Of a DNA stretch of 51,031 nt, positions 2,159 to 48,555 are shown in pieces. The notes below the pieces were generated by a model, which saw only the letters and a list, made by a program, of their open reading frames with translations, was not told where the DNA came from and did no database searches. This DNA comes from Escherichia phage BEK7. The position numbers were made by a program, and so were the translations under genes. The stretch is taken from sequence record MN158209.1. The stretch is one strand, 5' to 3'. Positions within the stretch are counted from its first letter, which is position 1. Every line of letters begins with the position of its first letter.

Positions 2159-3439
2159 ATGAGTAAATCACGAATCGTTAAGACTGACGGCTATAACGAG
2201 ATCTTTAAAGGCGAGAATTGCAAATCGCGAGTAGAGCAACCATTCTACATGCAATCAATGCCATACAAGACACTTGCTGACTTTTACGAAAAAGACGGAC
2301 TAGCAAAAAGGATTATTGACGTAGTGCCAGAGGAAATGGTTTCCCCTGGCTTCACTGTTGACGGAGTGGCAGACGAGGCGGCATTCCGTTCTTTGTGGGA
2401 TGAAAAGCGATTGAATGCAAAAATTATTGATGCGCTTTGCTGGTCGCGTTTGTTTGGCGGATCTGCAATCATTGCTCTTGTTCAGGATGGGCGGGCGCTC
2501 AAATCACCTGTAAAGCCTGGGGCCATGCTGGAAGATGTTCGCGTTTACGATCGTTATCAGATTCGCGTTGAGGCGCGCGAAACTAATCCCCGCAAGGTTC
2601 GCTATGGTGAGCCAGTGCTTTACACTGTAACGCCAGGCGGAGACTTGCCGGAATACCAGGTACACTACACGCGAGTTTGCATTATCGACGGTGAGCGGAT
2701 ACCTAACGCAAAGCGACGCAGCAATGATGGCTGGGGTGAGTCAGTTCTGAATAAGCGACTTGTTGAGGCTATTGTTGATTATAACTATTGTGAAACATTG
2801 GCAACGCAATTATTGCGGAGGAAACAGCAGGCTGTATGGAAGGCTAAAGGACTTGCTGACTTGTGCGATGATGAGGAAGGTGTTAGCGCGGCACGCCTGA
2901 GACTTGCGCAGGTTGACGACGATGGCGGTGTTGGAAAAGCAATTGGTATTGATGCTGAGGATGAGGAATATGATGTTCTTAATTCTGACATCAGCGGCGT
3001 TGATTCTTTCTTGGAAAAGAAAATGGATCGCATCGTTTCCCTTTCAGGTATTCATGAAATCATCCTGAAAAACAAAAACGTTGGCGGCGTTAGCGCAAGC
3101 CAAAACACGGCGCTTGAAACATTCTATAAGCTGATTGAACGAAAACGCGTCGAGGATTACAAGCCTATCCTTGAATTTCTATTGCCGTTCATCATTAGTG
3201 AGCAGGAGTGGAGCATTGAGTTTTCACCTTTGAGCGTACCTAGCGATAAAGATCAGGCTGAAATTCTGAATAAGAATATCGACTCAATCAGCAAGGCTAT
3301 TGATGGTCAGTTCCTTGATGTTGAAGAAGCGCGCGACACGTTGCGAGCAATCGCCCCAAGCGTTAAACTAAAGGACACTAATAAAATCAAGCTGCCGGAG
3401 CCATCGGAGCCGGAGCCAGGCACACAGGGGAATGAGTAA
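2159..3439 (+). CDS. portal protein
   Basis: 426-aa ORF after terminase with strong RBS (GGAGGAAAGATAATG) and acidic C-terminus; canonical position. Confidence 0.7.
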   Translation: MSKSRIVKTDGYNEIFKGENCKSRVEQPFYMQSMPYKTLADFYEKDGLAKRIIDVVPEEMVSPGFTVDGVADEAAFRSLWDEKRLNAKIIDALCWSRLFGGSAIIALVQDGRALKSPVKPGAMLEDVRVYDRYQIRVEARETNPRKVRYGEPVLYTVTPGGDLPEYQVHYTRVCIIDGERIPNAKRRSNDGWGESVLNKRLVEAIVDYNYCETLATQLLRRKQQAVWKAKGLADLCDDEEGVSAARLRLAQVDDDGGVGKAIGIDAEDEEYDVLNSDISGVDSFLEKKMDRIVSLSGIHEIILKNKNVGGVSASQNTALETFYKLIERKRVEDYKPILEFLLPFIISEQEWSIEFSPLSVPSDKDQAEILNKNIDSISKAIDGQFLDVEEARDTLRAIAPSVKLKDTNKIKLPEPSEPEPGTQGNE

Positions 3440-4206: not shown

Positions 4207-5319
4207 ATGAAGGCAAAACAAAGATTTGATAGCGTCCAGGTTAAGGCGCATTTTGATGATAATGGTTTTTTAGTTGATCGCCCAATTGTGGCGCGAATTG
4301 GCTTGCAGGAGTATCACACACCGTATGGAATCAGACGAGAGTTCCGTCCAGCGTCCGAGGTGTTCAAGGCTGATTCCCTTGCTACTTTCGCAGGTAAGCC
4401 GATCACTATCGGTCACGTCACAGTGACGCCAGATAATGCGGATCAGGTTGTTGTTGGTTCATGCGCTGGCGCTGGTGTTCCAAATGGGATTGGCGTTGAA
4501 GTTCCGTTAAGTATTTACTCAAAGCGAGCAATTGAGAGTGCAAAAAAGAAAGACACGGCGGAAATTTCAGTTGGTTACACATCGGTTGATATTGACAAGC
4601 CAGGCTGGGGTAATAATAAAACTGGTGATTACTTGTTTGAGGAAGACCTCAAGGAAGACTGGAAGCCTGATTCTCCTGATTGGGTTAAATTTGACGCCAT
4701 TCAGACGAATATCCGTGTTAATCACATTGCACTTGTCTTTCGTGGTCGTGCTGGCATTGCCAAATTAAATCTTGATAGTGAGCAGGATTTTCCGTATAGT
4801 GACGAGGTTCTAAATGACAAAGGAGATGAGGAAATGACAGTAAAAATTAAACTTGATGGCGCGGTAGAATTTGATGTTCCAAAGGCCGTTGCTGATCATA
4901 TTGAGGCGTTAAAGGCAGATGCAAAAGCTGCAACCGAAAAAGCTGATGGCCTTGAGGCCGAGCGCGACGCCCTGAAAACTAAAGTCGATGGCATTCCGGT
5001 GCAGATTGCAGAAGCTGTTAAGAAGGCAAAGACTGATGCAGAAGAACACGCCAAGCTGGTTGCAGATGCAACTGAAATTGGCATCAAGTGTGACGGCTTG
5101 GACGATAAAGCGATCAAGGTTGCTTACGTCAAAGAAGTCACTGGCGCTGATATTTCAGAAAAAGCAGATGCATATATTGAAACAGCTTTTGACCTTGCGA
5201 AGCAGTCTGATAAAATGGCGGCGCAGCGTAAATCTGTTAAGGGCGATTCTTTCGAATCTGGCAAGAGTGAAAAAACCGACTCCCTTGATCCGACTGCGCG
5301 TTTGAAAAAACTTAAATAA
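4207..5319 (+). CDS. scaffolding protein (possible prohead protease-scaffold fusion)
   Basis: 370 aa; C-terminal half is Ala/Lys/Glu-rich predicted coiled coil; lies between portal/morphogenesis genes and capsid genes. Confidence 0.5.
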   Translation: MKAKQRFDSVQVKAHFDDNGFLVDRPIVARIGLQEYHTPYGIRREFRPASEVFKADSLATFAGKPITIGHVTVTPDNADQVVVGSCAGAGVPNGIGVEVPLSIYSKRAIESAKKKDTAEISVGYTSVDIDKPGWGNNKTGDYLFEEDLKEDWKPDSPDWVKFDAIQTNIRVNHIALVFRGRAGIAKLNLDSEQDFPYSDEVLNDKGDEEMTVKIKLDGAVEFDVPKAVADHIEALKADAKAATEKADGLEAERDALKTKVDGIPVQIAEAVKKAKTDAEEHAKLVADATEIGIKCDGLDDKAIKVAYVKEVTGADISEKADAYIETAFDLAKQSDKMAAQRKSVKGDSFESGKSEKTDSLDPTARLKKLK

Positions 5320-33426: not shown

Positions 33427-34545
33427 ATGAGTCAAAGCAAGATAACCGACGAGCAATTCACGCATGAGCGATTAAAGGGTAAGAGCTATCGACAGATTGC
33501 TGAGGAATACGGCCTGAATGTTCGCAGCGTCGAGCGCCGAGCGGCACGACTGGCAAAGCAGGGAAAAATAACCACTGTAGGAACGCCTGGTTTTGGTGTT
33601 CACGGCGAATCGGTCATGACCGACAAAGAAGGTAACGTGATCCTCAAATGGACAAAGACCAGTAAGGACAAAGAGCAACTGGAAGCGTTGATGCGCGCAG
33701 CTATGGACGCTTTTACCGAAGAATTACCTCGTGTAGATCCGACACCAGAAGAAACAATAAAATACAGAGAAAGCCTTGCCCTTTACCCCGTTTTTGATAT
33801 GCACCTGGGAGCTATGGCGCACAAGCACGAATGCGGCGAGAATTGGGATACATCAACGGCAGAGAAGGTAATGAATGACTTTTTCGATTATGCTGTGGCC
33901 TGCGCCCCGTTCAGCGAGAAAGCAGTGCTGCTGATTGGCGGCGACATGCTTCACAGTGACGGCCTGGAAGCGGTAACTCCTGCAAGCGGTCACGTATTGG
34001 ATCAAGATAGCCGATACGCAAAATTAGTTTACGTTGCAATTCGTGCCGTCCGTCGAGCCATTGAGTTGATGCTCAAAAAACACAAAGAAGTCGAGATCCA
34101 GATAATTGAGGGCAACCATGACCAAAGCGGCATGATCTGGTTACGTGCAGCTATGGCGGCGGCATATGAAAAAGAGCCTCGCGTTTACGTTGATGTATCG
34201 CCGCGAGTGGTTCACCATACGCAGTACGGAAAAACATTCCTTGCATATCATCACGGTCACACCGTCCGAAAGCCGGAAACATTGCTAATGATGTGCGCAG
34301 CAGACTGGCGGGAGGACTTTGGAAACTCAAAAACTATGTATGCGCACGTAGGGCATTTTCATCATCAGACTGTAACAGAAACATCGCTAGGCATTGTTGA
34401 AGTACATAGCACGATGGCAGCTAAAGACGCATACGCCGCGCGAGGCGGTTGGCGTTCCCGTCGCCGTGCTGCGGTTATCATTTACGACAAAGAACACGGC
34501 GAAATCGGACGCTTTATGTTTTATCCTGAAATGGCAGATAAATAA
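33427..34545 (+). CDS. calcineurin-like metallophosphoesterase with N-terminal HTH domain
   Basis: Phosphoesterase motifs DMH, GGDMLHSDG, EGNHD and His-rich HVGHFHH; N-terminal HTH-like YRQIAEEYGLNVRSVERR. Confidence 0.6.
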   Translation: MSQSKITDEQFTHERLKGKSYRQIAEEYGLNVRSVERRAARLAKQGKITTVGTPGFGVHGESVMTDKEGNVILKWTKTSKDKEQLEALMRAAMDAFTEELPRVDPTPEETIKYRESLALYPVFDMHLGAMAHKHECGENWDTSTAEKVMNDFFDYAVACAPFSEKAVLLIGGDMLHSDGLEAVTPASGHVLDQDSRYAKLVYVAIRAVRRAIELMLKKHKEVEIQIIEGNHDQSGMIWLRAAMAAAYEKEPRVYVDVSPRVVHHTQYGKTFLAYHHGHTVRKPETLLMMCAADWREDFGNSKTMYAHVGHFHHQTVTETSLGIVEVHSTMAAKDAYAARGGWRSRRRAAVIIYDKEHGEIGRFMFYPEMADK

Positions 34546-44198: not shown

Positions 44199-45089
44199 AT
44201 GTTAAAACTTGCTGACATTAAATTCCCGATCACCTTCGAATCTCGCTACATTGGTCATTTCATGTTTACCGACGAGAAGACATGCACTAAGTTTAACGAA
44301 GACGGAAGTACAAACGCTTCAACAATGGAGATTGAACACTTCATTGAAGCGCACAATAAACACTACAACTCACTCAGAGACTACGGTTACGCAATGCCAG
44401 GCTACACTTGTTTGCACTACAAACCATATGAAGGCCAGGTGTTACCAGTGCGCTCGCCGGAACGCGAAGAGATTCATACGGTAGATATGAAAACCTGCGA
44501 CTACAAAAAATTGTGGTGCTTAAACGTGGATAACATTAAGTATCCGATCGTATTCCGCACTGTTGATTATTCAACGATTCGCTATACGTCACCAGACAAC
44601 GGCGTTTATAGTGATGGCCTGAAATCAGGTTTTAAAGTTGATTTTTTTGTTGATGGTCATAACAAATTAAATCCGCACAACGAAAAAGATAAGGTGTACT
44701 ACGTGGAAGATATTACAAAACACTTGTTTGGGGAAACACCATTCGGCGGCGGGAAGACGTCAATTCAAAAAATCATTGGCGAGGAGATCCACAAGGAAGC
44801 CGCTGAAATGAAAGCGCCTGGAAGCTGGCGTATTGATAAGAGCGAAATTGCCTATCAAGAAATAGTAACGCAGGGAGCAATTGAAGACATGCCAGTTGCC
44901 GCCACGTTAAAAGGGGTTCAGCTTGATGACGGCACCTGGTATGAATTAACGGCTAAGCCAAAGACGATCGAAATTCATGATGACGTTGTTATCCTCCTTC
45001 TTCACTACTGCGGAGCTAAAAACCGGACTGTTGCAGGTGAGATCAGCATCAAGCGCGGAACTATGGTTAAGTGGAAGGTCAAAGTATGA
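44199..45089 (+). CDS. hypothetical protein
   Basis: 296-aa ORF with RBS AGGAG; no motif recognised. Confidence 0.45.
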   Translation: MLKLADIKFPITFESRYIGHFMFTDEKTCTKFNEDGSTNASTMEIEHFIEAHNKHYNSLRDYGYAMPGYTCLHYKPYEGQVLPVRSPEREEIHTVDMKTCDYKKLWCLNVDNIKYPIVFRTVDYSTIRYTSPDNGVYSDGLKSGFKVDFFVDGHNKLNPHNEKDKVYYVEDITKHLFGETPFGGGKTSIQKIIGEEIHKEAAEMKAPGSWRIDKSEIAYQEIVTQGAIEDMPVAATLKGVQLDDGTWYELTAKPKTIEIHDDVVILLLHYCGAKNRTVAGEISIKRGTMVKWKVKV

Positions 45090-45148: not shown

Positions 45149-45169
45149 AATAGCACGAATTGTTAAAAC
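45149..45169 (+). promoter_or_regulatory. conserved element, GAA-variant copy
   Basis: AATAGCACGAATTGTTAAAAC followed by hairpin GGGCCA-TGTATAA-TGGCCC with TATAAT in the loop. Confidence 0.5.
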
Positions 45170-45221
45170 TCAAATGTGGGGCCATGTATAATGGCCCTAC
45201 TTTCAACGAAGGAGACAAAAG

Positions 45222-45671: not shown

Positions 45672-46214
45672 ATGAAAAAATACGAATTTGAACTTTGGGG
45701 CAGCAAATACCATTTTTCCACGAGCAAGCCGATTGTTATCGTTGACCTGGACGGAACGTTATCAGACGGAACGCATCGCTTGCACCTGCTTCCGACAGAA
45801 GATTTGCACCTTACAGAAAGCTGGTCTGAGTTCAATAAGGCGGCTGTTGGCGATTCGCCGATTAAGAGCACGGTTGCAGTGGTTAACGGTTTGTGGATGT
45901 CGGGATTTGCCATCGTTATCCTGACCGGACGTAGCGATGAAGTGATGGAGGACACCTGCAAATGGCTTAACGAAAACAGCATCAAGTACGATGCGTTAAT
46001 CATGCGCCGCAAGGAAGACAACCGCAAAGACACAATCATCAAAGAAGAAGTCTTGCGCGCTATCGGACTGGAAAACATTGTGTGCGCTTTTGATGATTCG
46101 CCGAACGTGGTTAAGCACTTCCGAAGCCTGGGAATCACAACCTATCAGGTCACGGAATACGACAAGCCACATAATCATATCCAATCGCATGGCGTGGAGG
46201 AGTTGCAGAAATGA
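45672..46214 (+). CDS. HAD-family phosphatase (polynucleotide 3'-phosphatase / nucleotidase-like)
   Basis: HAD motif I IVIVDLDGTLSDG, motif II ILTGRS, motif IV FDDSP. Confidence 0.6.
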   Translation: MKKYEFELWGSKYHFSTSKPIVIVDLDGTLSDGTHRLHLLPTEDLHLTESWSEFNKAAVGDSPIKSTVAVVNGLWMSGFAIVILTGRSDEVMEDTCKWLNENSIKYDALIMRRKEDNRKDTIIKEEVLRAIGLENIVCAFDDSPNVVKHFRSLGITTYQVTEYDKPHNHIQSHGVEELQK

Positions 46215-46420
46215 TCCTGAATGTAGCATATGCTAACCCTCGCGGCCGCAATATATTCGGCTTTAAGGTTGGCGCGATGGTCAACGCCAGGATAAACGAA
46301 AAAGGCGTATTAGTTGTCAAGTCTCCTAAAACTGGCGTGGATATGCACATCAAGGAGAACGGCGGAAGATTGTTTATCAGGTCAATGTCTGGTCAAACGC
46401 TCGCAACGTTCACCAAATAG
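46211..46420 (+). CDS. hypothetical protein
   Basis: 69-aa ORF; stop TAG inside the next element copy. Confidence 0.35.
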   Translation: MILNVAYANPRGRNIFGFKVGAMVNARINEKGVLVVKSPKTGVDMHIKENGGRLFIRSMSGQTLATFTK

Positions 46421-46437
46421 CACGAATTGCAAAAAAC
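46416..46437 (+). promoter_or_regulatory. conserved element, GAA-variant copy
   Basis: AATAGCACGAATTGCAAAAAAC then hairpin GGGCTT...AAGCCC containing TATAGT. Confidence 0.45.
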
Positions 46438-46492
46438 AGATCATCGGGCTTGCTGTATAGTAAGCCCATCAACAACAAACGAGGATTAAATC

Positions 46493-46756
46493 ATGGCTAA
46501 CAAGATCGAGTTTTTTAAAGCTGTAGACATTATCGACGGCACGCCTAGCTTCTTTGCTATACATTCTATTGACGGAAAGGACATTGGTTACAATGTTATC
46601 CGTCGTGATGGAATCTCAAAACTTAGTAACCTGGTAGGCCATATTGTGTCAAACGGGAAATGCACATGGCCCGATTCGCCACGAGATCCACGCCGCCGCG
46701 ACATGGTAGAGCCTGTTCTGCTTTACACTCTGGTAATTGAAGGGGAAAACAAATGA
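46493..46756 (+). CDS. hypothetical protein
   Basis: 87-aa ORF, RBS GAGGA. Confidence 0.4.
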   Translation: MANKIEFFKAVDIIDGTPSFFAIHSIDGKDIGYNVIRRDGISKLSNLVGHIVSNGKCTWPDSPRDPRRRDMVEPVLLYTLVIEGENK

Positions 46757-46938
46757 TCTATGCACTTGTATTTTTAGTTATTTTCTTTTATATTTCAGGA
46801 TTATTCATCTTCCGCGCATTGGTTAAAGTGTGTGATTGCACTGATAAAGATCAGCCTCTTGTTCTGGTGTTCTGGTTTGTGTGGTTTTGGGTGGCGCTTT
46901 ACCAGATTGTACTGGATGAAAGCGGCTTTAAGTGGTGA
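46753..46938 (+). CDS. hypothetical small membrane protein
   Basis: 61 aa with two hydrophobic segments. Confidence 0.35.
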   Translation: MIYALVFLVIFFYISGLFIFRALVKVCDCTDKDQPLVLVFWFVWFWVALYQIVLDESGFKW

Positions 46939-47132
46939 TTCTTGCTATAGCGCATTCATGCAGTGCGCTATATTGAGATAACAACAGGAGATTATGAAGA
47001 TGCGAAGCGTCGAAAAAATCGTATCCAAGAAGAAGCGATACAGCTACTACGAGCACCAAGAGATGAATCAACGCTATCGCAATAAGCGCAAGCGACCAGG
47101 CAAACATTCAAGCAGATATGGAGACAACTAAT

Positions 47133-47723
47133 ATGAAGCGCGACATTATCATCCTTAACGGACCGCCAGGGGTTGGAAAAGATACGCTTGCGGCATACTT
47201 AACGGGCCATCGTTACGCAGCCGTTGAAGCGTCGTTTAAACAGCCTATGTTTGATATTGCGTTTTCCATGCTTGGTGTTTACCGATATGACGAGTTCATT
47301 GATCTGTATAATGACCGCGAGCAGAAAGAAAAGCCTCAAGCAATCTTGCAAGGCAAGTCGCCTCGCCAGTTCATGATCTGGATTAGCGAAGAAGTTATGA
47401 AGCCAGCTTTTGGCGAGCAATATTTCGGAAATCGCATGGTTGAGCAAGTACACGAGATGTACGGAGATTTAGCTGTTGTAATTAGTGATGGCGGATTCCC
47501 TGAAGAAATCAAGCCGCTAGTTAAGGCAGGCCATGAAGTTCACATTTGCAGACTGCATCGCGAAGGCTTCACGTTTGATGGCGATTCACGAAACTATATT
47601 GACCTGAACGGATACCATCACCGAGTAAAACATTACGACTTCACAATGATTGATGGCGATCCAGAAAAGACTATTGACGAGATCATCAAAACGGTCCAGT
47701 GGAAACACATTAAGATCAAATAG
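47133..47723 (+). CDS. P-loop nucleotide / polynucleotide kinase-like protein
   Basis: Walker A ILNGPPGVGKDT (GKDT variant as in phage dNMP kinases); 196 aa. Confidence 0.55.
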   Translation: MKRDIIILNGPPGVGKDTLAAYLTGHRYAAVEASFKQPMFDIAFSMLGVYRYDEFIDLYNDREQKEKPQAILQGKSPRQFMIWISEEVMKPAFGEQYFGNRMVEQVHEMYGDLAVVISDGGFPEEIKPLVKAGHEVHICRLHREGFTFDGDSRNYIDLNGYHHRVKHYDFTMIDGDPEKTIDEIIKTVQWKHIKIK

Positions 47724-48291: not shown

Positions 48292-48555
48292 ATGGTTTTT
48301 AATGCACTAAAACGAATCTTTAAACCTGAATACCGGATTGTTTCTTGCACAGAATGCAAGATTTATTACCTGCAACTCCGCCGCGTTATTAGTGGCGATT
48401 GGGAATATCTGACGAATGATGCTTTCGGCTTTTGGGCTATGAAGTTCAATAGCTACAGCGAAGCGCGTGAATACGCTAAAAAGTTGCACAAGTTCCGACC
48501 TTACAAGCTGCGTTTGCTGGTTGTCAAAAAATGCGATGTGTTGGATCACGAATGA
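48292..48555 (+). CDS. hypothetical protein
   Basis: 87-aa ORF. Confidence 0.35.
   Translation: MVFNALKRIFKPEYRIVSCTECKIYYLQLRRVISGDWEYLTNDAFGFWAMKFNSYSEAREYAKKLHKFRPYKLRLLVVKKCDVLDHE

Follow-up and report, generated by a model that had tools for sequence, protein, structure and literature searches.

A Pnkp-type phosphatase gene and a gp1-type kinase gene linked in a T1-like Escherichia phage: a candidate nucleotide-supply module

Two genes in the genome of Escherichia phage BEK7, one for a HAD-family phosphatase and the other for a P-loop kinase, raise the question of whether they work together and on what. An earlier note, made from the letters of the sequence, had read them as a split polynucleotide kinase/phosphatase pair, with counter-defence tRNA healing or nucleotide salvage as its possible role. 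Here we ask to which families the two proteins belong, how often their genes travel together in other phages, and which pathway best accounts for both.

The window (the whole stretch of DNA that was analysed, 51,031 bases) is the complete genome of a T1-like siphovirus (Drexlerviridae, Tempevirinae, Hanrivervirus). The deposited annotation used for comparison is that of MN158211.1 (Escherichia phage BEK1-23), which has 100% identity with the window; the window is rotated with respect to it, and a window position equals the record position plus 42,915. The earlier note placed two + strand ORFs with the motifs DLDGTL and GPPGVGKDT about 1 kb apart; coordinates and deposited coding sequences agree with it, and the gap is 918 bp. 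The family matches and homolog numbers given below show both to be conserved genes and not ORFs that arose by chance. The features needed below are listed by window position.

33427..34545, + strand: PHROG-704 'DNA repair exonuclease' (phrog_704, E 7.5e-148), not linked to the HAD-kinase pair in the window genome
45163..48361, + strand: weak candidate for a single transcription unit over the HAD and kinase genes, from a consensus scan
45672..46214, + strand: HAD phosphatase gene, 180 aa (2757-3299 of MN158211.1)
45744..45761, + strand: HAD motif I, DLDGTL, HAD residues 25-30, with the nucleophile Asp25 and with Asp27
46211..47131, + strand: four small ORFs between the HAD and kinase genes (69, 87, 61 and ~43 aa), with PHROG matches of unknown function only
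47133..47723, + strand: gp1-type (d)NMP kinase homolog, 196 aa (4218-4808 of MN158211.1)
47160..47186, + strand: P-loop GPPGVGKDT, kinase residues 10-18

The candidate transcription unit is bounded by a promoter-like site (45163-45192) and a terminator-like hairpin (48343-48361), and the consensus scan finds no terminator-like site on the + strand between the HAD and kinase genes. Since promoter and terminator sites are fewer than expected from shuffled sequence, the scan is compatible with co-transcription but does not establish an operon.

Family membership of the phosphatase and the kinase

The HAD protein matches the Pfam model PF25109 (HAD_PNKP) with 80.2 bits against a cut-off of 27.6 (E 2.2e-22), over profile positions 3-140 of 143. 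It also matches phrog_415 (E 4e-66), and 640 database sequences are homologous to it at E <= 1e-3. A phmmer search of the PDB returns Pnkp1 (4xrp, 2.5e-9) and T4 Pnk (1ltq, 2.4e-5), and the best Foldseek matches of its AlphaFold model are 4xru (3e-8) and 5uj0 (4e-7); the pLDDT of this model is 75, and prediction is poor in the cap region and at the C-terminal tail. The closest solved relative is Pnkp1 from Capnocytophaga gingivalis (4XRP/4XRU), at ~30% identity, and the C-terminal HAD domain of the T4 kinase/phosphatase (PseT, 1LTQ/5UJ0) is the best or second-best match in both sequence and fold. The motif DLDGTL is invariant in the family alignment and pairs with D165-V-D167-G-T of T4; the window protein and PseT share the DxDGT signature as well as a homologous fold.

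The correspondence extends to catalysis. Residues that we take to be essential to the T4 3'-phosphatase from mutagenesis by the Shuman laboratory (D165, D167, R176, R213, D254, K258, D277 and D278) were mapped by alignment to T4-type PseT, and all have equivalents in the window protein (D25, D27, R36, R87, D120, K124, D141 and D142, in the same order). These equivalents are kept in 16-17 of the 17 family members, as is T29, which was likewise aligned to its T4 position. From the Pfam, PHROG, PDB and fold matches, together with the conserved T4 essential residues, the HAD protein is predicted to be a stand-alone 3'-phosphatase of the Pnkp type. A 5'-nucleotidase was considered and rejected, since the protein matches NT5C far less well than HAD_PNKP. 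Its deposited name, '3'-phosphatase, 5'-polynucleotide kinase', claims too much and misleads because the kinase domain is absent.

The differences from the solved relatives concern what surrounds the domain. Unlike T4 Pnk, the window protein stands alone (180 aa) without a kinase domain; its cap insert (HRLHLLPTEDLHLTESW) is longer, its C-terminal tail (residues ~162-175) is conserved, and its genome has no partner RNA ligase. Pnkp1 is a kinase-phosphatase fusion that works within the Pnkp1-Rnl-Hen1 RNA repair complex, whose partners are absent in the window phage.

The kinase is deposited as a 'hypothetical protein' (JK_59P), and its relatives carry the names 'ATP-binding protein' or 'dNMP kinase'. 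Among the PHROGs its match is phrog_139 'dNMP kinase' (3.8e-50), and its family comprises 3,101 representatives (50% identity) at E <= 1e-3. The kinase passes the threshold of none of the curated Pfam and NCBIfam kinase models: AAA_18 scores 19.8 bits against a required 29.4, and the NCBIfam models stay far under their cut-offs. PDB sequence searches with the kinase recover the P-loop only. A profile built from 66 family sequences has an alignment of 175 columns with T4 gp1 (probability 90.6%, E 1.3e-6), whereas against PseT the same profile aligns over just 23 columns, all in the P-loop. The kinase matches gp1 (1DEK) in fold and, over the full length, in profile, at ~17-24% identity, and homology to the Pnk kinase domain was not found past the P-loop. 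The named neighbours of the kinase among viral predicted structures are mostly labelled dNMP kinase.

Individual residues tell a similar story, with exceptions. The P-loop has the GKDT form of T4 gp1, as opposed to the GKS/T of Pnk; G15, K16 and D17 are invariant (66/66) and T18 is found in 61/66, and they pair with G13-K14-D15-T16 of gp1. The list of substrate contacts in 1DEK was taken from a published analysis (PMC10653934). Contacts R68, R132, M135, W152, D175, E181 and R197 of gp1 correspond to kinase residues R62, R78, M/L81, F98, D119, E125 and R143, which are kept in 56-66 of the 66 sequences; for the equivalents of R68, R132, M135 (M or L), D175 and E181 the count is 63-66. Two of the four gp1 ligands of the dNMP phosphate are not conserved in the family: at the position of R177 the family has Gly121, and at that of K37 it has Phe40, four residues after an invariant Lys36. 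An insert of ~36 residues in gp1 is also missing. Given these two replacements and the missing insert, the acceptor site may differ from that of gp1.

Kinases that act on 5'-OH ends combine a GxxxxGK(S/T) P-loop with a conserved Asp, the general base, after strand 2. The window kinase has no conserved Asp after strand 2; S34-F35-K36 is conserved there, and D41, close by, varies among family members. As judged from its sequence and profile matches, the kinase is predicted to be a divergent nucleotide kinase of the gp1 type and not a Pnk-type 5'-OH kinase. The earlier note had proposed comparison with T4 Pnk, dNMP kinases and 5'-nucleotidases, and that comparison divides its pair: the phosphatase does match that of Pnk, while the kinase matches gp1 instead. 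The interpretation in the earlier note is partly supported.

Another gp1-like protein, PP_1964 of Pseudomonas putida, belongs to the same 1DEK-like superfamily, whose members are carried by phages and genomic islands. It is longer than the window kinase and retains the R177 equivalent. Genetic evidence indicates that PP_1964 functions as a thymidylate kinase, which provides a precedent for kinases of this kind acting on dNMPs (PMC10653934).

With the two families in hand, the tRNA-healing reading can be weighed. It holds that the pair is a split version of T4 Pnk and mends tRNAs cut by anticodon nucleases (PrrC, RloC and similar), and the phosphatase would suit this, since it shares homology with the phosphatase domains of PseT and Pnkp1, which are active in RNA repair. 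The kinase, however, is not of the Pnk type, and the genome encodes no RNA or DNA ligase. On this last point the earlier note, which had recognized no ligase nearby, can be extended to the whole genome: searches with ligase seeds against all window ORFs give nothing at E <= 10, and KxDG matches are confined to structural, primase and other unrelated ORFs. Nor does the pair lie beside an RNA ligase in any of the loci examined from other phages, where the ligases present carry DNA-ligase domains only. To our knowledge, E. coli has no Rnl-type ligase that could seal healed 3'-OH/5'-P RNA ends, which also counts against tRNA healing. With the wrong kinase family and no ligase to finish the repair, we consider this role very improbable.

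One upstream ORF deserves a separate remark. The 296-aa ORF at 44199-45089 was considered as a ligase and rejected; it encodes an internally duplicated protein, to which no function was assigned.

Linkage of the phosphatase and kinase genes in other phages

The kinase family is present in 1,460 deposited phage genomes and the HAD family in 3,179 phage records. Among 80 IMG/VR loci with a kinase relative, 70 have a HAD gene upstream of it on its own strand, and wherever both are present the order is HAD then kinase, at a spacing of 0 to ~2.7 kb. Close relatives (at least 45% identity) are over-represented among these loci; shared ancestry therefore accounts for part of the figure of 70/80, and independent support has to come from different phage families and from gene fusions. 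Both are available. The stop codon of the HAD gene overlaps the start codon of the kinase gene in Webervirus (Drexlerviridae) and in Aeromonas phage Tola (Autographiviridae). Fusions of the two into a single polypeptide, phosphatase first, occur in two deeply divergent lineages and fall into three protein clusters: P0255 and P0387 are 74% identical to each other, and P0269 stands at 37%. The fused genes are intact on contigs from independent samples, and their HAD domain clearly belongs to the same subfamily as the HAD protein of the window.

The pairing of the two genes is far beyond chance. Fusion in two divergent lineages, constant order and strand, and codon overlap in unrelated phage families argue for selection on the linkage, and the fusions, read as Rosetta-stone proteins, suggest that the two window proteins act in one pathway.

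The rival to be considered here is that the enzymes are independent, with the HAD protein mending 3'-phosphate ends of DNA or RNA on its own, the kinase serving as a housekeeping dNMP kinase, and the two being neighbours through membership of a replication module. Several observations would fit: four ORFs separate the genes in the window genome, the HAD family is the much wider of the two, and the kinase occurs without a HAD gene in Chaseviridae, Kuravirus, rV5-like phages and some podoviruses. The four intervening ORFs are missing where the HAD and kinase genes abut, and so are probably outside the module. Against independence stand the single-polypeptide fusions in two divergent lineages, and the order and strand kept in 70/80 loci along with the codon overlaps. 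On balance we think it unlikely that the two enzymes are unconnected.

A metallophosphoesterase partner and the ligase neighbours

A third gene recurs beside the pair. A PHROG-704 gene or, in podovirus-like contigs, a gene for a weakly Metallophos-like protein directly precedes the HAD and kinase genes or follows the fused gene. The arrangement PHROG-704, HAD, kinase is found in 21 loci; in others, the fused HAD-kinase gene precedes PHROG-704, or a metallophosphoesterase gene is followed by the HAD gene (in some cases), the kinase and a ligase. The PHROG-704 protein consists of an N-terminal HTH followed by a divergent metallophosphoesterase of the calcineurin/Mre11 type. Pfam detects the HTH alone; the motifs DMH, GGD, GNHD, HGH and GHFHH align with those of the Metallophos-like podovirus proteins. 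Profile and single-sequence searches find no solved relative of the PHROG-704 metallophosphoesterase, which may be either a nuclease like Mre11/SbcD or a phosphatase.

In the podovirus-like contigs the genes for the metallophosphoesterase, the phosphatase (where present), the kinase and an ATP-dependent DNA ligase are contiguous, with overlapping codons. This suggests another possible pathway, DNA end-healing, in which the HAD protein would strip 3'-phosphates while the gp1-like kinase, as a non-canonical polynucleotide kinase, would phosphorylate 5'-OH DNA ends. The breaks would come from host nucleases or damage, and sealing would fall to the podovirus's own DNA ligase or, for the window phage, to host LigA. 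The phosphatase is indeed of the end-healing Pnkp type. Mammalian PNKP has its phosphatase before its kinase, an order that the fused phage proteins share, and the domain set of the podovirus cluster recalls that of Clostridium thermocellum Pnkp. The kinases of both these enzymes, however, are of the Pnk/Clp1 type and act on 5'-OH ends, whereas the phage kinase is of the gp1 type.

The remaining evidence on end-healing is mostly adverse. The kinase aligns with gp1 over its full length and with Pnk in the P-loop only, it conserves several of the gp1 residues that hold the acceptor phosphate and base, and it has no conserved Asp after strand 2 to serve as general base. Its family is also fused to DHFR and placed beside genes of deoxynucleotide metabolism, as described below. 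Moreover, the ligase holds the same position in loci without a HAD gene, and thus its adjacency may be inherited gene order. We therefore regard DNA end-healing as a minority interpretation with rather low probability.

A bolder proposal takes the metallophosphoesterase, the Pnkp-type phosphatase and the gp1-like kinase as a dedicated three-enzyme phage module, the last two sometimes in one polypeptide. In one version the kinase would represent a new class of polynucleotide 5'-kinase, in a non-canonical end-healing route that feeds DNA ligase and mends DNA broken by host defence nucleases; in the second version, the three would carry out the degradation of host DNA in T1-like phages and its recycling into dNTPs. 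We offer this as speculation, and in either form it is doubtful.

Nucleotide supply as the preferred reading

The kinase family has telling neighbours outside the pair. One member is fused to DHFR, on six contigs from several samples; the fusion gene lies beside that for thymidylate synthase (ThyA), in divergent orientation, and its product retains the invariant residues of the kinase family. The kinase gene sits between those for DNA ligase and dUTPase in Chaseviridae, and in an rV5-like phage thyX and nrdAB are near it. The DHFR fusion and the dUTPase, ThyX and Nrd contexts all point to deoxynucleotide metabolism.

T1-like phages, which have neither a polymerase nor a ribonucleotide reductase, are reported to break down the host chromosome and reuse its nucleotides, and the authors of the TLS study noted that the enzymes were still to be identified (PMC11447400). 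In the window genome, the deposited annotation and PHROG and Pfam scans of the large ORFs reveal no gene for a DNA polymerase, a ribonucleotide reductase or a ligase. A role in nucleotide supply suits the phage because T1-like phages are reported to reuse host nucleotides, and this one has neither its own polymerase nor its own ribonucleotide reductase.

We thus favour a coupled nucleotide-supply module, with a probability of about 0.55; its substrates, the order of its reactions and the link to reuse of host DNA are what we infer from the families and contexts above. The HAD protein would be a Mg-dependent phosphatase that takes 3'-phosphates off the ends of DNA or oligonucleotides, or off deoxynucleoside 3'-mono- or 3',5'-bisphosphates, and the gp1-type P-loop kinase would convert 5'-dNMPs to dNDPs. 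In this way the phosphatase would unblock or clean the breakdown products of host DNA, and the kinase would drive the resulting dNMPs toward dNTPs. The PHROG-704 metallophosphoesterase possibly acts upstream of both.

Some observations pull against nucleotide supply. The R177 and K37 ligands are changed in the kinase, the ~36-residue insert is absent and no curated kinase model is reached. Why a 5'-dNMP kinase should be paired with a 3'-phosphatase is not obvious, unless breakdown yields products with 3'-phosphates. In podovirus-like contigs, the position of the module directly before an ATP-dependent DNA ligase would also suit end-healing and sealing.

The pair might instead counter host defence, with a different phosphorylated small molecule as its target, for instance a nucleotide that is toxic or serves as a signal. 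The kinase does conserve the gp1 residues that contact the nucleobase, which speaks against such a substrate, as do genomic contexts of replication and nucleotide metabolism and a PADLOC run with zero matches for the HAD protein, the kinase and the PHROG-704 protein. We give an anti-defence role of this kind very little credence.

If the module does handle the breakdown products of host DNA, it would be a concrete candidate for the recycling of the host chromosome in T1-like phages; were DNA ends its substrate, the kinase would count as a polynucleotide kinase of a new type. The linkage of phosphatase and kinase, their occasional fusion and the usual metallophosphoesterase neighbour make up a compact module present in more than a thousand phage genomes.

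Neither protein represents a new family, and annotations of the gene pair exist already for T1-like phages. Papers on these phages suggest a role in nucleotide supply at the level of annotation (PMC11447400, PMC13164509, PMC6714547); literature searches on T1-like phages found such annotation-level statements only, and no experimental work on either gene. In that literature we did not find reports of the phosphatase mislabelling, the gp1-type identity of the kinase, the coupling by fusion and synteny, or the recurrent metallophosphoesterase partner. For the window genome itself the result is mainly corrective, in that the supposed kinase/phosphatase is a phosphatase only, the 'hypothetical protein' is a predicted gp1-type kinase, and T4-like RNA repair is not the function to which they point. 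Orthologs with the same arrangement in T1-like phages (TLS Gp09/Gp14, T1p62, KanT1, and CDS18/CDS16 of Sfin-1) are annotated 'polynucleotide kinase' and 'dNMP kinase': these labels are annotation only, and the former is wrong for a protein that has just the phosphatase.

C-terminal tail of the phosphatase

The HAD protein, a stand-alone Pnkp-type 3'-phosphatase, has a short C-terminal stretch that stands out for its conservation in the family:

46155-46196, + strand: C-terminal tail TEYDKPH..LQSHGV of the HAD protein (residues ~162-175)

The tail is nearly invariant across the HAD family, and it is predicted to be disordered in the structure model of the HAD protein (pLDDT 35-46). Proteins in which the HAD and kinase domains are fused retain a similar stretch in the linker, and for this reason we consider that the tail may be a docking peptide. 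Many close homologs of the HAD protein are extended by ~57 aa at the C-terminus, contain a short Cys-rich segment such as IECEGEHCFSVVDGKCLRCG, or show both features; these include the homologs P0123, P0132 and P0153 (236-237 aa), as well as P0121, P0147, P0176 and P0235. The BEK1-23 protein has neither the extension nor the Cys-rich segment.

Variants of the kinase family

Fusion to a different partner is seen in P0373, a DHFR-kinase protein of 372 aa from metagenomic contigs (loci L094-L096). Its gene adjoins, in divergent orientation, a gene for thymidylate synthase; the arrangement occurs in six contigs from several samples and looks like a compact dTMP-pathway cassette. Some other members of the kinase family are far longer (locus L089 of Kuravirus CHD5UKE1 and the BFVD matches A0A2P1MX24, A0A6J5RPH7 and A0A7S6HV70). 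The long members include a 297-aa protein extended at its N-terminus, one that bears the name nucleoside 2-deoxyribosyltransferase, and a protein of 518 aa in which a DOD homing endonuclease either interrupts the sequence or is fused to it.

Other genes of the genome

33427-34545, + strand: PHROG-704 'DNA repair exonuclease', N-terminal HTH followed by a metallophosphoesterase motif set
44199-45089, + strand: 296-aa ORF a short way upstream of the HAD-kinase pair

The motif set of the PHROG-704 protein is of the calcineurin/Mre11 type, divergent, and was not detected by Pfam. In other phages this protein is the recurrent neighbour of the HAD-kinase pair. It is a possible candidate for the enzyme with which T1-like phages degrade host DNA. 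Two stretches of the 296-aa ORF match the phrog_7116 profile (173 positions), which suggests an internal duplication; no ligase motif was found in this ORF. The deposited annotation also places at least five HNH/homing endonuclease genes across the 51-kb genome, some of them between replication genes.

Names in deposited records

In GenBank, the phosphatase-only HAD protein (45672-46214) and its relatives are widely labelled 'polynucleotide kinase' or '3'-phosphatase, 5'-polynucleotide kinase', an error that has spread through records of Drexlerviridae and other phages. Host names may be affected too: ~20-39 records named as Campylobacter phages (for example, 'Campylobacter phage A134', MG065663.1) are T1-like or rV5-like coliphage genomes, with 80-92% identity to the BEK1-23 window, and are probably contaminants or assigned to the wrong host.
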